From: an uncultured Clostridia bacterium
Lineage (GTDB): Bacteria; Bacillota; Clostridia; Christensenellales; CAG-314
Length of the DNA: 59,083 nucleotides
Assembly (NCBI GenBank): GCA_947601445.1
Contig: CANQGD010000005.1
Location: 1 to 59,083, forward strand
Direction: 5' to 3'
The position numbers and the translations under genes were made by a program. Under the pieces are notes generated by a model. The model was not told the origin of the DNA, searched no databases, and saw nothing but the letters and a program-made list of their open reading frames with translations. Positions 228 to 7,391 of the stretch are shown here, piece by piece. Positions within the stretch are counted from its first letter, which is position 1. Every line of letters starts with the position of its first letter.

Positions 228-3200
228 TCAGTTTTTCCCGTAAGTAAACGATTTGTTTGCAAGGTCGAAAGTCAGAGTGTATTCACCGTTAAATTCGCTC
301 GGGGTTCCGTCGGCGTTGAGCTTGTTGACCGTTACAACATAAGTGTTGCCTTGGACAGACTGTATCTCTGCGGCAAACTCCTGCACGGAGTTGGACGTTG
401 CGAACAACAAATGAATAGAGTTGAACGTGCCGTCCGCCATAACAGTCACAACGGCTTTTGTGCCGTCGTCGTTGCTGTAAACGACGGTTTGAGAATTGAG
501 CGAACTTTCGTAAGTGAATGTGTGGGCATCGGTATCGAGATAAACCACGACTTTGTAGGTTAGATTGAGATGATACACGCTGAATTGATATACATTGTCG
601 AGGTTTGGATCAACCTTTGTAAGATACCAACCCCATGTTTCGGTTTGTTTTTCCAAACCGTTGCCGTCAACATTTTTGAGAACGCCGTTGGCGGTTACGT
701 AATTTCCGTCCCTGACAGTGAGCGTACTGCCGTCCGACGCAGTGTAGGTGGTTACGACCTCGATTTTCTGCTTGGTGTAGGTAAAGGTTCCGTCAAGCGC
801 CAACGTGACTGTGTAAACGTAACCGTTGTAAGTGAAACGGGTACGATAATTGGAGTAATCGAAAAGAATTTCGTCGCCGCAATAGTAGCCTTGTTCACTG
901 CCGAAAGTGATTTGCAGCGTTTCGTCGCCGTTGGTGTAGGTATACGTTACGCCTTGCTTTACAAAAACATACCTGTCGTCGTTGCCGAACTCGGAGAAAT
1001 CCGCGCCGATCAACTCATCGCCGTTTCGCGTTAGAATATTTTCCTCAACGACAAATTCCTGAGTGAGCTCGGAATGATCGAACCAGGAGATATAAATTGT
1101 ATCTCCGACCGTTTTGTACAAACCGAAATAAGTTTCGTTGAACATAACGCGATCGCCCATTTCCAAAACTTCCGCGGCGCCCGTAAGGCTGTACCAATAC
1201 GTCGTTTGAGCGGCTTTTACGCGTAGGGCGGTGGCATAACGCGCCCAATTGTTGCCTTGGGCAAATGCAACGCCCGTTTCGTAGCTATCGACATAGACGC
1301 GAAGCTGCAAAACACCGTCAAACGGCATACCTACAAGCGTCGGGGGAACGGTTCCCGTAAAGGTGACAATAAAGTCCAACGGAGTTACTTGCTCGCCCGT
1401 TTCGTCTTGGATACGTCCACATTCGTAAAACGCGCGATTGGCGATAGTTTGCACTTCGCCGAGGGTGACGCGTGTGAGTGAGTAGTTGCGGGCAAAAGCA
1501 AGACTGCCTATACTTGAAACGTTGCCCAAAGATATTTCGGTAAGGGCGCACCCCGAAAAGGCGCTTTCGCCGATAGATTGCACATTGTTGAAAATTACCG
1601 TGCGCAATCCCGAACAACCGAGAAACGCTTCGTTGCCGATGACGGTAACGCCGTTGAGATTTACGGAAACGATGTAATCACGATTGGCGAAAACATTGTC
1701 GGCGATTGCCGTGACGCCGTCGGGTATGACGACGGATACGTTTGACGGGTTGCTCTGCTTGTTGTTGTATCCGACAAGCACGCCGTTTTCCACTTCGAAT
1801 TCGGGTTTGATGGACTGCTCGGCATTGCTTGTGACAAATTTTGCATATCCGTCGGGTTGGCTGGGCGTTGCGGAAGCAAACGCTTTGCGGTAAATTTCTT
1901 CGTTGCCGTCGGGGACAAATATCTTGAAGTTGCCCTTGATCCAACGAAATACGTCCTGCCCCAATTCGGGCGGAGTTTGAGATTTGAAAATCGCCGTGTT
2001 GAGTACGGAAGCACCGTCGGCGCTGCTATCCTCAAAGGCGTGGTCGCCTATTTTGCGGAGAGTGGACGGGAACGTTACGGAAACAATATGCTTGTCCTTG
2101 AATACGTCGGACGCTATTTCCGTTACGCCCTCGGGAATTTCGATGACGACGCTTGTGCCGACGTAATCGGTAAGCACGCCCTTTTCGTCTATCACAAAAC
2201 CGCTTTCCAACAGGCTGAACGTGTGTTGATTGAGATTGACGCGCAATGCCAATTCGCTTTCATCGTCGATAAAGGCGATGACAATCGTACACTCGGTTTC
2301 GCTTTCTACGGATACAGTGTAAAATCCCGTGCGCTCGTTTTGAGTACTGCCGTCGGCAGAGTACCAAGCGCCGCCGTAACCGTCCAAATACAGAGTAGAC
2401 GGAGTGTAACCGTCCGCATGAACATAATTGCCTTGCTCATTGTGACGGATCATGAAAATCCCCATACCGGGGTATTGCTCGCCGAGCTCGCTCAAAATAA
2501 AGTAGAAACTTTCTCCCTCTTTGGATAAAAATACCATTTCGGGGTCGGAGTCATCGGCGTAATTCGCAAAATAGTAGATACCTTCGGCGACAAGCTCGTT
2601 TTCTTCTCTTTCCGTTTCGGGATCGATATAGCCGTGATACAACTTGGCATTGCCGTAACCGTCCGGTTGGAACATATAGTCCGCTACAATTTGTCGGTTG
2701 TAATAATACACATACGTATAATAGCCTTCCGTGCCGCGCTCCATAAAGTAGCCGTCGGCAAAAAGACCTTCGCCCAAATCGACGGATTCCTTTACCAATG
2801 CAAAGTACATTTCCACTTGTTCGCCCGTGGAGGGAAATACTCCGCCGAGATAGTAGTCGCCGCTTTCGTTGTTGAGCTTGTATGAGCAATAATAGTTTTT
2901 GGTGCGCAAAGTGCCTTCTTCGGGCAAAGCCAATACGCCCGTGCCGTAACCGTCCAACGTGAGCATAATGTTGGGTATCACATTTCCGTATTCGGTGCCG
3001 TTGTAATAGAGCGGATCGAGGAAAAGATATACGCCGAATTCTTCCGAACGGTATACAAACTTGTTTTGAGAGTCGTCGTCTTGATAAAGCCGTCCGAAAA
3101 CGTAGGTTTCGTCGTCAAGCAACACTTCGAACTCGACAATATCCCCTGCCCCGTCGGCAGTTTGGGTTACGTTGAGCCAACCTTCATACTCCTTGCCGTC

Positions 3201-4487
3201 CCGAACAAGCACCGCCGCTCCAAGACCTTGTACGTTGTTGCGTACGCGTACCGTATCGCCGCTGCCGGCGTCGTCTGTGAACACTTGCACGAGGACGGGA
3301 TACAGCGTGACGTCGGAATAAAGCGTCAACTTTGAACCGAACGGATAATCCCTGCCGTCGCCTGTTTCGGAAGTACAGTAGGAGACGATCTGATTTTGAG
3401 GGTCGTCGTTAGTTGGGGTACGTACCGTAATTTCTGTGCCCCACTTTGCCGTTTGCACAAAACCGTCGTCGGTATAAGTGACGGTAAAGGTGCGCAACTC
3501 AAAATAACTTGTCAGAACAACGCCCGTTTCCGATACGGCGGATTCGACAAGACAGCCCTCATGATCGGGATCGAGCGCAAACTTGCTTTCGTCGGGATTG
3601 CGACTGCTTGCCGTGCTGCCCACAACTGCGAAAAATTCTATATCGTCGCCCTGAACAAATTCGCTTGCGTCGTCGGTTTCCAACCAAACTTTTTGCGTTA
3701 CTTTGGCTTGCCATACGGCATAAAGAGTAACGTCGGAAGTGACGATAATCTCATCGCCTGCGTTGTAGGAGGTGCCGCCGTTGTCCGCAGACGTGTTGTA
3801 ACATACAAACGTTGCCGTTTGAGATACAAAACCGTTTTCGGGCAAGGTGACAACATCGCCGAACAGGGCGGAAACAGCGCCCGTTTCGCCCGCGGCGGAA
3901 AGCGCCAGACCTTTGTCGAAAGCGAGCGTAAATTGCGCCCTCTTGTAATACAGTTTGAGAACTACTCCGTTGTCGTTGAGCTGCGCCGATTGCAACGTCC
4001 CCTGTATCGAGGGATCGAAAACGTATCCTTCGATTTGCACGGGCTGAACGGTCACGTCGGTTTTCCACAACGATTTGAACGTCTGAGTTTGCGCTTCGTC
4101 ACGAAGGAACAAACCGTCGGACTGCTCTTTGTAATGCTCCGTTTTGTAGGATACAAGCCAACGCGCATTTACGGTGAAATCACGCGCGGGGGCAAGAGTT
4201 TGCGCCGTTACGACGGCGCCGTCCAGCTCGTAGCCGTCAAACTCGTAAGCGGATATAGGCACTACGATGTCTTTGAGTTCGTTGTAGAACGCCGAACCCG
4301 ATTTCACCTTGAACAAAACGTTTTGCGTTCCTTCCAAACCGAAATCCACAGTGACGGTTACTTCCGTGACGGGGTCATCGGGAGTGTCCGGACCGGGAAC
4401 GTCCGGATTGCAAGCCGTTAACGTCAATGCAACGACAAGAACCGCAAAAAACGCTAATATAATAGTTATTTTAGATAATCTTTTCAT
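228..4487 (-). CDS. Large (1419 aa) surface lipoprotein with InlB B-repeat-like domains, LDGYG-type repeats and BspA-type (LRR_5) leucine-rich repeats
   Basis: Signal peptide II with lipobox LTAC; B-repeat-like ends (DVTLYAVW, DVTLYPVL); TpLRR/LRR_5 repeats (IPEGVTEIASDVF, IPDGVTAIADNVF, VTVIGNEAF, VQSIGESAF, VSSIGSLAF). Confidence 0.85.
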   Translation of the reverse strand: MKRLSKITIILAFFAVLVVALTLTACNPDVPGPDTPDDPVTEVTVTVDFGLEGTQNVLFKVKSGSAFYNELKDIVVPISAYEFDGYELDGAVVTAQTLAPARDFTVNARWLVSYKTEHYKEQSDGLFLRDEAQTQTFKSLWKTDVTVQPVQIEGYVFDPSIQGTLQSAQLNDNGVVLKLYYKRAQFTLAFDKGLALSAAGETGAVSALFGDVVTLPENGFVSQTATFVCYNTSADNGGTSYNAGDEIIVTSDVTLYAVWQAKVTQKVWLETDDASEFVQGDDIEFFAVVGSTASSRNPDESKFALDPDHEGCLVESAVSETGVVLTSYFELRTFTVTYTDDGFVQTAKWGTEITVRTPTNDDPQNQIVSYCTSETGDGRDYPFGSKLTLYSDVTLYPVLVQVFTDDAGSGDTVRVRNNVQGLGAAVLVRDGKEYEGWLNVTQTADGAGDIVEFEVLLDDETYVFGRLYQDDDSQNKFVYRSEEFGVYLFLDPLYYNGTEYGNVIPNIMLTLDGYGTGVLALPEEGTLRTKNYYCSYKLNNESGDYYLGGVFPSTGEQVEMYFALVKESVDLGEGLFADGYFMERGTEGYYTYVYYYNRQIVADYMFQPDGYGNAKLYHGYIDPETEREENELVAEGIYYFANYADDSDPEMVFLSKEGESFYFILSELGEQYPGMGIFMIRHNEQGNYVHADGYTPSTLYLDGYGGAWYSADGSTQNERTGFYTVSVESETECTIVIAFIDDESELALRVNLNQHTFSLLESGFVIDEKGVLTDYVGTSVVIEIPEGVTEIASDVFKDKHIVSVTFPSTLRKIGDHAFEDSSADGASVLNTAIFKSQTPPELGQDVFRWIKGNFKIFVPDGNEEIYRKAFASATPSQPDGYAKFVTSNAEQSIKPEFEVENGVLVGYNNKQSNPSNVSVVIPDGVTAIADNVFANRDYIVSVNLNGVTVIGNEAFLGCSGLRTVIFNNVQSIGESAFSGCALTEISLGNVSSIGSLAFARNYSLTRVTLGEVQTIANRAFYECGRIQDETGEQVTPLDFIVTFTGTVPPTLVGMPFDGVLQLRVYVDSYETGVAFAQGNNWARYATALRVKAAQTTYWYSLTGAAEVLEMGDRVMFNETYFGLYKTVGDTIYISWFDHSELTQEFVVEENILTRNGDELIGADFSEFGNDDRYVFVKQGVTYTYTNGDETLQITFGSEQGYYCGDEILFDYSNYRTRFTYNGYVYTVTLALDGTFTYTKQKIEVVTTYTASDGSTLTVRDGNYVTANGVLKNVDGNGLEKQTETWGWYLTKVDPNLDNVYQFSVYHLNLTYKVVVYLDTDAHTFTYESSLNSQTVVYSNDDGTKAVVTVMADGTFNSIHLLFATSNSVQEFAAEIQSVQGNTYVVTVNKLNADGTPSEFNGEYTLTFDLANKSFTYGKN

Positions 4488-6906: not shown

Positions 6907-6935
6907 TTGACATTTACACCGCAGTATTGTAAAAT
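6907..6935 (+). promoter_or_regulatory. Near-consensus sigmaA promoter
   Basis: TTGACA-17-TAAAAT. Confidence 0.75.
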
Positions 6936-6937
6936 AG

Positions 6938-7099
6938 AGTTGCGACACAGTTTAATATTATTCGAAAATGGGTATCTCTTGGGTAGAGCATACCTCATTC
7001 GCAACATATGTCCCTTTTTCGGATAATACTGTAAACTAGTGTCGCAACTACGCGAAGAGGCGCTTTACGGGTGCCGTTTCGCAAGAGCGGCACTTTTTT
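6938..7099 (+). ncRNA. Highly structured ~160-nt RNA or attenuator leader of unknown family
   Basis: Nested stems AGTTGCGACAC/GTGTCGCAACT, AGTTTA/TAAACT, TATTATTCGAAAA/TTTTCGGATAATA (G-U pair) and GGTATCTCT/AGAGCATACC; ends in a GNRA-capped terminator GTGCCGTTTC-GCAA-GAGCGGCAC-T6. Confidence 0.6.
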
Positions 7100-7128
7100 G
7101 TTGTCGAATATTTTCAAGGAGGATAAAT

Positions 7129-7391
7129 ATGAAAAAAACTTGCAAATTTATTTTGATTTCGCTACTTGTTTTGTTGGTTGCAGCTTCGCTTGCAATAACC
7201 GCATGCACGCCAGCGTAACAAGCATCGGCAAGTTTTCTTTCCTGCGTTGCGGCAATTTGGAAAACGTTACGTTTGAAAATCCCGAGGGTTGGAAAACGGG
7301 TAATACAAATCTGACGCTTGACAATCCTCAAAAAAATGCGGAGTATGTACGTGATTCGGCATACTGTAATGCCGTTTGGACGCGTCAATAA
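7129..7391 (+). pseudogene. Internally deleted BspA/LRR_5 lipoprotein remnant
   Basis: SD AAGGAGG and ATG 7129 give MKKTCKFILISLLVLLVAASLAITAC-TPA*, stopping at 7218. Another frame continues ASVTSIGKFSFLRCGNLENVTFENPEGW...AVWTRQ*, which is a last LRR repeat plus C-terminal cap. Confidence 0.7.

Follow-up and report, generated by a model that had tools for sequence, protein, structure and literature searches.

The window analyzed here is the whole stretch of 59,083 nucleotides (nt) at positions 1 to 59,083 of contig CANQGD010000005.1, from an uncultured Clostridia bacterium (GenBank assembly GCA_947601445.1). Between positions 6907 and 7128 it carries a promoter, a large structured leader RNA and an intrinsic terminator, directly ahead of the start codon of a short open reading frame (ORF). 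We find that this leader belongs to a new family of terminator/antiterminator leaders that is present in many gut Clostridia and in viral contigs, and that its linker segment has two mutually exclusive partners. We lean toward the view that the element is a cis-acting transcription attenuator in the 5' leader of an mRNA, with a riboswitch-like build.

RESULTS

Promoter, leader RNA and gene remnant at the locus

An earlier note on this DNA had described a near-consensus sigma-A promoter firing into nested helices with a side hairpin, followed by a small hairpin and by a terminator just before the ATG of a lipoprotein gene with leucine-rich repeats (LRR). The features as we now place them, in positions of the whole stretch, are collected in Table 1. 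Most of that description holds: the promoter matches the consensus at 11 of 12 positions, the nested helices (6938-7049) and the side hairpin lie where they had been placed, and the terminator precedes the ATG at 7129, which follows its U-run by 30 nt. The small hairpin is also real but turned out to be part of an antiterminator, its inner helix, and this antiterminator has positions 7071-7082 in common with the terminator. The 174-nt leader RNA has a minimum free energy (MFE) of -69.8 kcal/mol, compared with -40.8 +/- 4.0 kcal/mol for 200 dinucleotide shuffles (z -7.18), none of which (0/200) folds as stably, and the reverse strand of the same stretch folds at -57.9 kcal/mol. A 23-codon frame within the hairpin, running from AUG to UAG, was considered as a leader peptide and dropped; it has no Shine-Dalgarno sequence and is absent from relatives. 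The leader also contains a gene-directed, promoter-like site at 6998-7027 (TTCGCA, 18 nt, GATAAT; 9/12 positions) that reaches from J3/2 to the 3' arm of P2 and, judged by eye, is not conserved in relatives.

The lipoprotein gene announced behind the leader is present in pieces only, as a lipoprotein signal peptide and an LRR piece, while an intact gene is missing: the 29-codon ORF is followed by an out-of-frame remnant whose LRR_5 match (20.2 bits, E 6e-4) stays below the Pfam cut-off. Contigs from two other studies span the joint (X4 record 11, 7179-7267, and X9 record 23, 7188-7338), and the truncation thus also occurs outside this assembly. Relatives have full-length BspA-type LRR_5 lipoproteins behind the leader (for example locus L012, E 1.7e-46), and the sequence indicates that the short ORF is what remains of a gene once regulated by the leader and since decayed. 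Another BspA-type LRR protein, of 1419 amino acids (LRR_5, E 4e-29), is encoded at 228-4487 (-), 2.4 kb upstream on the opposite strand; the family model finds no leader of the same type ahead of it.

Table 1. Features of the leader and of the region directly behind it (whole-stretch positions)
Feature	Position	Strand	Remarks
Sigma-A type promoter	6907-6935	+	-35 TTGACA 6907-6912, 17-nt spacer, -10 TAAAAT 6930-6935, TGn-extended (TG 6928-6929)
P1 helix	6940-6948 with 7039-7047; 6949-6954 with 7032-7037	+	predicted fold
P1 5' arm	6940-6954	+	outer part 6940-6948 UUGCGACAC conserved in sequence; inner part 6949-6954 covaries
P1 3' arm	7032-7047 (7032-7037 and 7039-7047)	+	predicted fold; pair counts on alignment A4
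P2 helix	6956-6968 with 7016-7028	+	variable, covarying stem; predicted fold and changes in alignment A1
P3 side hairpin	6971-6979, loop 6980-6984, 6985-6994	+	family GGUAG motif at 6982-6986
seg1	6982-7003	+	loop and 3' strand of P3 and start of J3/2; complementary to linker; proposed anti-antiterminator strand
J3/2 single-stranded junction	6995-7015	+	UUCGC 6998-7002, proposed toehold for linker, then A-rich tail
Linker	7048-7070	+	7052-7068 pairs with seg1 or, as 5' half of the antiterminator, with 7071-7082
Antiterminator hairpin	7052-7082	+	GCGAA:UUCGC outer, GGCGC:GUGCC inner, loop UUUACGG; present in MFE fold
Intrinsic terminator	7069-7099	+	stem 7069-7095, U-run to 7099
Shine-Dalgarno sequence and lipoprotein signal-peptide ORF	7116-7122 (AAGGAGG); 7129-7218	+	29 codons, TAA at 7216-7218
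BspA-type LRR C-terminal remnant	7219-7391	+	out of frame (frame of ORF 7071-7391)

A leader family without a counterpart in Rfam

Rfam 15 gave no match at the gathering score anywhere in the window, and lowering the threshold to E<=10 around the element produced only noise, the best hit being tsr25 at 20.8 bits against a cut-off of 63; the family had been called unrecognized before, and so it remains by this check. Scans of 29 loci with other members returned tRNAs only, and two members from the class-level sample again gave only noise at E<=10. The search itself works on the source genome, since ordinary T-boxes (RF00230) are found at three places elsewhere in it and none at the leader locus. 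These three lie at C1:169870-170085, C1:26795-27030 and C18:13090-13274, one above the gathering score (104.4 bits) and two below. No description of the leader was found by a text search of the literature. Nor did a motif search of part of the supplementary files of PMC8040213 and PMC10690425 yield a match, though the element may still sit among their thousands of unnamed candidates. The kind of element, a terminator/antiterminator leader, is known, while the family itself, for which neither an Rfam model nor a description in the literature was found, is new.

By blastn, there is no second copy in the 1.6-Mb source genome, and relatives occur in 12 of the 36 other genomes of the genus, the nearest being 89% identical to the element of the window. 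A covariance model built from 11 close relatives (model R1, alignment A1) matched 33/47 genomes of the genus, with up to 9 matches per genome, 36/82 genomes and 3/18 genera at family rank, and 16/151 genomes from 11/95 genera in a sample of the order. A second model built from 38 diverse members (model R2, alignment A4) matched 35/151 genomes and 26/108 genera in a sample of the class, with up to 12 matches per genome; promoter, rod, side hairpin P3, linker and terminator were present in all class-level matches inspected (the 9 best and the 39 weakest). By covariance model the source genome has three copies, the one in the window and those at C2:36441-36596 and C4:29690-29898. Records bearing members are titled uncultured Clostridia, Clostridiales, Eubacteriales, Christensenellaceae, Candidatus Scatosoma and Bacillota and come from the animal or human gut. 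A sequence pattern run on genome contigs found 64 loci; 26 were run through the model and 21 matched, and the five without a match (Methylobacter, Bacteroidota, Micrarchaeota, Sinorhizobium and Krumholzibacteriia) were taken as chance hits.

One subfamily is common in viral contigs, where the model matches 32 of 80 fetched loci, and further matches come from two unannotated "Bacteriophage sp." records of human faecal origin; no plasmid record matched. Some loci are tandems, in which a subfamily-1 element with its own promoter is preceded, 130 to 340 nt upstream, by a subfamily-2 element that has a terminator of its own but lacks an ORF (L010:1833-1987, L011:1789-1946, L024:2006-2166, L032:1252-1409 and L013:179-346; three of these loci are in one genome and the others in two further genomes). 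The window lacks the upstream tandem partner that its closest relative carries.

Common architecture and covariation

Members share one architecture. Promoters matching at least 9 of 12 consensus positions lie directly upstream of 109/117 unique members, compared with 181/2000 control windows, and in 92 of these 109 the -10 element ends exactly 1 nt before the model match, which places the start of the transcript at the foot of P1. The outer P1 sequence is characteristic of the subfamily (GCGACAC, ACCACAU or GCCACAC), and inner P1 covaries freely. An A-rich "AAUA" bulge, to which A6955 and the flanking A/U bases of the window belong, separates P1 from P2, a stem that differs in length and sequence among members. 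At the tip of the rod sit P3, often with GGUAG or GGUAA in its loop and 3' strand, and the J3/2 junction of about 20 nt; on the 3' side of P1 follow, throughout the family, a linker of about 20 nt and then the terminator.

The earlier note had called for homologs with covariation in a consistent position 5' of genes, and both are found, the former for P1, P2, P3 and the terminator. On A4, P1 pairs in 87.0% of cells, with 11/15 pairs changed on both sides, and the terminator in 88.3%, with 6/9 pairs so changed. The corresponding values on the alignment of subfamily 2 (A5) are 94.8% with 8/16 pairs for P1 and 100% with 2/7 pairs for the terminator. P2 shows many compensatory changes in A1 (columns 22-39 with 87-102). 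P3 is paired in 88.1% and 79.6% of cells within subfamily 2, where 5/10 pairs changed on both sides; on the diverse set MAFFT misaligns the 5' strand of P3 and the loop of the terminator, and the counts obtained there for P3 (42.6%) and the outer antiterminator helix (about 65%) are uninformative. Taken together, the helices of P1, P3, the terminator and the pairing of seg1 with the linker pair in 76-100% of cells, compared with 26-51% when the partners are slid, and their covariation score is reached by 0/500 shuffles.

Selection acts on the RNA form of the element, as had been supposed from its G-U pairs and bulges. Compared with its reverse complement, the rod, from P1 to P1', is the more stable of the two in 135/143 unique members (means of -42.8 versus -35.3 kcal/mol) and contains 3.64 G-U pairs on the transcribed strand versus 1.25 on the complement. 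The direction is consistent, although the kinship of the members inflates any formal p-value.

Two competing pairings of the linker

The linker has two alternative pairings backed by covariation, one with seg1 and the other with the 5' half of the terminator. At the locus, seg1 (6982-7003) pairs with 7050-7068 through three helices of 7, 4 and 5 bp and a duplex energy of -22.8 kcal/mol; the median over 84 members is -19.6 kcal/mol. Cognate pairs average -19.33 kcal/mol versus -14.43 kcal/mol for non-cognate ones, and 0/5000 permutations were as low. On A4 the proportions of paired cells in the three sub-helices are 87.6%, 75.9% and 77.9%, and 5/7, 2/3 and 4/6 pairs have changed on both sides, the values for helix PKc, in which J3/2 pairs with the linker, being 77.9% and 4/6; on A5 the pairing holds in 90.0% of cells with 7/16 pairs changed on both sides. 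With slid partners, 30-51% of cells are paired, and the covariation score is attained by 0/500 shuffles. The complementarity is kept between subfamilies despite wholly different sequences (GUAGA:UCUAC, CCAAU:AUUGG, AAAAACG:CGUUUUU and UAAAAAUGCA:UGCAUUUUU).

In the antiterminator, the linker's partner is the terminator's 5' half together with its loop, and the hairpin alone reaches -18.7 kcal/mol at the locus. Here, too, cognate pairs are stronger than non-cognate ones (-14.30 versus -11.28 kcal/mol; 0/5000 permutations as low), and the outer helix reads UGCGAA:UUCGCA in the subfamily of the window and CUAUCG:CGAUAG in subfamily 2. The whole RNA at the locus is isoenergetic in its two states, at -65.1 kcal/mol with the terminator forced and -65.3 kcal/mol with the antiterminator forced. 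The terminator state together with the seg1:linker duplex would come to about -78 kcal/mol, a rough sum that is valid only if the pseudoknot is sterically possible. Another alternative fold had been suggested before, in which the 5' arm of P1 pairs with the terminator; tested with the 5' arm of the terminator, it found no support, since cognate and non-cognate energies are alike (-4.37 versus -4.51 kcal/mol) and 3994/5000 permutations are as low.

Genes behind the family members

In 94/117 members a start codon with a Shine-Dalgarno sequence follows the element at a median distance of 30 nt, and the genes behind are mostly those of surface or membrane proteins. Rough sorting of the 117 members by regular expression gave lipoprotein-like signal peptides in 41, N-terminal zinc ribbons in 16, other membrane or signal proteins in 8, other genes in 29, a second element directly behind in 11 (tandem) and no called ORF in 12. 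The entry for the window was mis-called from a spurious frame in this sorting, its true 29-codon ORF being a lipoprotein signal peptide too. Pfam families found downstream include BspA-type LRR_5 lipoproteins, double zinc-ribbon proteins, SPFH with a zinc ribbon, YpsA/SLOG, ROK and GmrSD_N, and copies in phages precede proteins without assigned function, among them a DUF4839 lipoprotein. In many of the regulated lipoproteins there are His/Cys-rich repeats of the form H-x-H-x-F-...-W-...-H-W-H-...-C-x-H soon after the lipobox and ahead of the LRR region; no Pfam family was reported for the motif, and such proteins lie downstream of L011, L012, L024, L032, L070, L076, L080, L089 and others.

Inverted cassettes in viral contigs

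Two loci in viral contigs have the interior of the element inverted between the P1 arms. The 77-nt interior of L245, whose element lies at 1158-1315 (-), is the reverse complement of that of L203 (76/77 positions) in a comparison with L203 and L236, and the flanks are collinear with those of L203 (67/71 on the promoter side and 110/113 on the side of linker, terminator and gene). The 91-nt interior of L444, from another data set and another subfamily, is likewise the reverse complement of those of L417 (91/91) and L404 (90/91), with direct flanks (72/75 and 108/111). An orientation count over further viral-contig loci found 2/106 inverted, namely L444 and again L245, the latter being the one of an earlier count of 1/90, and 0/182 chromosomal members examined (143 + 39) are inverted.

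For the element of the window, contigs from four DNA sequencing runs show no strand-changing joints. Contigs in the same runs do break at the 3' arm of P1, and paralogs can explain these breaks. Scans of viral contigs for an inverted junction gave 0 matches for the phage subfamily and 1 and 0 for two chromosomal subfamilies. JGI metagenome scans gave 0 matches to an inverted junction and also 0 to the normal junction of the window's subfamily, which is not in that collection, so that they are uninformative. The energy of the duplex between interior and linker is likewise a poor test of orientation, since P3 is self-complementary.

DISCUSSION

The earlier note had proposed a novel attenuation or antitermination element gating accessory surface genes. 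The new family and the terminator/antiterminator leader bear this out in part, but the decision appears to run through the two pairings of the linker and not through the fold suggested at the time. We think it somewhat probable that the element attenuates transcription in cis, and our model would be as follows. Transcription would start a few bases before P1, and the long rod of P1, A-rich bulge and P2 would form first, carrying at its tip the hairpin P3 and the single-stranded J3/2. As the linker emerges, its 5' part may meet the free J3/2 toehold and then displace the 5' strand of P3; nothing would then keep the terminator from forming, and the outcome would be a short RNA of about 160 nt without expression of the gene. 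Alternatively, the loop and 5' half of the terminator would capture the linker, and through this antiterminator RNA polymerase would read into the gene. If a small ligand or a protein were to occupy P3 and J3/2 or hold them shut, the gene would be switched on; termination would presumably be the default state.

Several observations weigh against this model. For seg1 to pair with the linker, a pseudoknot has to span a rod of about 27 bp, with P1 and the linker separated by only about 4 nt, which demands that the rod bend or that P1 open in part. The antiterminator helices have no changes on both sides within subfamily 2, so support for the antiterminator consists of the differences between subfamilies and the energy test. 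Conservation in the outer 7 bp of P1 extends beyond the pairing to the sequence itself, which a plain closing stem does not need. The members are interrelated, and the shuffle and permutation counts overstate their independence. Neither a ligand nor a protein effector was identified. Genes of many kinds lie downstream, namely those for lipoproteins, zinc-ribbon membrane proteins, YpsA/SLOG, GmrSD_N/DUF262-like, SPFH and ROK proteins as well as phage accessory genes without assigned function, whereas metabolite riboswitches have coherent gene sets. The element shares with riboswitches in general a conserved, covarying structured domain joined to an expression platform, but the functionally coherent set of regulated genes that is also typical of them was not found among the 117 members. 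Finally, the inverted cassettes of the two phage contigs hint at control at the level of DNA.

The logic of terminator, antiterminator and anti-antiterminator is known from the S-box/SAM-I and T-box leaders. As in these, a promoter-proximal structured domain is followed by mutually exclusive anti-antiterminator, antiterminator and terminator, and the copies are many per genome and found in Firmicutes. In contrast to them, the present element has no Rfam match, its genes form no metabolic regulon, and its anti-antiterminator is a long-range pairing of the strand of an internal hairpin and a junction instead of a closing helix. A T-box riboswitch was rejected: RF00230, whose model covers Stem I with the specifier loop and the antiterminator bulge, has no match at the locus, and the genes downstream are not those of aminoacyl-tRNA synthetases, amino acid biosynthesis or transport. 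Riboswitches for cyclic diguanylate (c-di-GMP) precede surface-protein genes in clostridia, and the multicopy leaders ahead of genes for adhesin-like or cell wall proteins resemble them in this respect. Their c-di-GMP-I model RF01051, however, gave no match, although the control genomes were silent too, and none appeared in the full Rfam scan. Moreover, no GGDEF domain was found in the 92%-complete source genome, while eight control genomes gave matches, and c-di-GMP is therefore an unlikely input. Among protein antiterminators, neither a CAT_RBD domain of the BglG type nor a second NusG (there is a single one) was found in the same 92%-complete genome; in a search for ANTAR domains the controls were silent.

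The inverted cassettes raise the possibility of an invertible attenuator, in which a recombinase flips the 77-100-nt cassette between the P1 arms. Flipping would swap seg1 for its linker-like complement, so that the forward orientation would terminate (OFF) and the flipped one would allow read-through (ON), and assemblies would show the majority OFF state. The precedent is the cwpV switch of Clostridioides difficile. In the excerpt of the published account that we draw on, imperfect 21-bp repeats surround a stretch of 195 bp that lies between the promoter and the ORF, the OFF orientation accounts for 96% of genomic DNA and the OFF transcript terminates (PMC2784873). The layout at our locus is similar, with the promoter upstream, the P1 arms (6940-6954 and 7032-7047) serving as left and right inverted repeats should the cassette be invertible, and the ORF downstream. 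As far as that excerpt goes, in both systems inverted repeats lie between the promoter and the gene for a surface protein, an intrinsic terminator of the leader exerts control and the two orientations occur, here for two phage-borne relatives; they differ in the size of the cassette (77-100 nt versus 195 bp), in the terminator, which here lies outside the repeats, in the highly structured and covarying RNA that our cassette encodes and in the recombinase, none being known here (PMC2784873). Two independent and precise inversions in public viral contigs (2/106 loci), the conserved sequence of the outer P1 arms and gene classes typical of phase-variable loci (surface, restriction-like and phage accessory genes) speak for such a switch. 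We nevertheless consider it unlikely: no inversion was seen among the chromosomal members examined or, in contigs, for the window, a spacing of 77-100 bp is far below that of known switches, and P2, P3 and the J3/2 tail are conserved or covarying beyond what an inversion switch needs. The flipped rod is also weaker owing to its G-U pairs (-54.7 kcal/mol for the whole leader RNA of L245, flipped, versus -65.8 kcal/mol for L203, forward), rare replication errors can flip hairpin-flanked spacers without a recombinase, and no recombinase is linked to the element. It is doubtful to the same degree that the family as a whole consists of class-wide miniature invertible attenuators that switch single surface, defense or phage accessory genes in Clostridia and their phages.

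The pairing of seg1 with the linker could also operate in trans. The terminated 160-nt RNA would then accumulate and act as an antisense RNA, its seg1 pairing with nascent linkers of the same or paralogous loci and blocking their antiterminator, which would result in negative feedback or cross-talk among copies. There is a precedent in the CI RNA of phage P4 and the c4 antisense RNA of phages P1 and P7, in which a leader segment is complementary to a downstream site of the same transcript and, by pairing with it, brings about early termination. Our element resembles these in having a leader piece that is complementary further down the transcript and in its association with phages, and differs from them in that there is no sequence match and that the target lies 50 nt away, before an intrinsic terminator. 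Trans action would avoid the steric problem of the pseudoknot while using a complementarity that is real, copies in one genome often have near-identical linkers (as in genome G011), a second element stands in place of a gene in the 11/117 tandem members and the family is common in phage contigs (32/80 loci). This reading nonetheless strikes us as rather improbable, as seg1 is largely buried in P3, the finding that the cognate partner often surpasses those of other members (in the top 10% for 39/83) also fits action in cis, and there is no Rfam match whatsoever, Rfam holding the c4 family. Another idea is that of a free-standing small RNA gene, or of a 5' stabilizing hairpin with a leaky terminator, that takes no regulated decision and has its position before genes by accident. 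The element does have its own promoter and its own strong terminator, 12/117 members have no called ORF behind them and 11/117 are tandem, and in the window an element that has stayed intact, with 89% identity to its nearest relative, stands before a decayed gene. However, the Shine-Dalgarno start codon at a median of 30 nt in 94/117 members leaves no room for another promoter, and a covarying antiterminator and anti-antiterminator would have no role, which makes this idea very improbable. A mobile repeat, be it a miniature inverted-repeat transposable element (MITE) or a repetitive extragenic palindrome (REP), or a chance palindrome retains next to no probability. Such an origin, which the earlier note had asked to be checked for MITEs, would fit the long inverted repeat and the many copies in some genomes, but blastn finds one copy in the source genome, flanks are not common to the loci, copies have diverged with compensatory changes and orientation is fixed with respect to promoter and gene; MITE and REP elements are excluded on these grounds.

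Should the attenuator model be correct, the family would be among the commonest unnamed structured leaders of gut Clostridia, present in their phages as well, and would control BspA-type LRR lipoproteins along with further envelope proteins that influence how cells meet host and phage. Identifying its input would then reveal a new regulatory signal in mostly uncultured bacteria, and the toehold design with its three partners would be a clear natural case of strand-displacement logic. If inversion were to be the mechanism instead, the cwpV mechanism, which had been described as unique, would be generalized, the element would be the smallest known inversion switch, and phase variation by flipping an RNA element instead of a promoter would be widespread and no single curiosity. 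On either reading the family merits a public covariance model, which would end the annotation of such regions as empty intergenic DNA.

One further variant concerns the linker itself. On the 3' side of P1, the viral-contig element L417 has an internal deletion of most of the linker and of the 5' half of the terminator, which joins the start of the linker to the 3' strand and U-run of the terminator.

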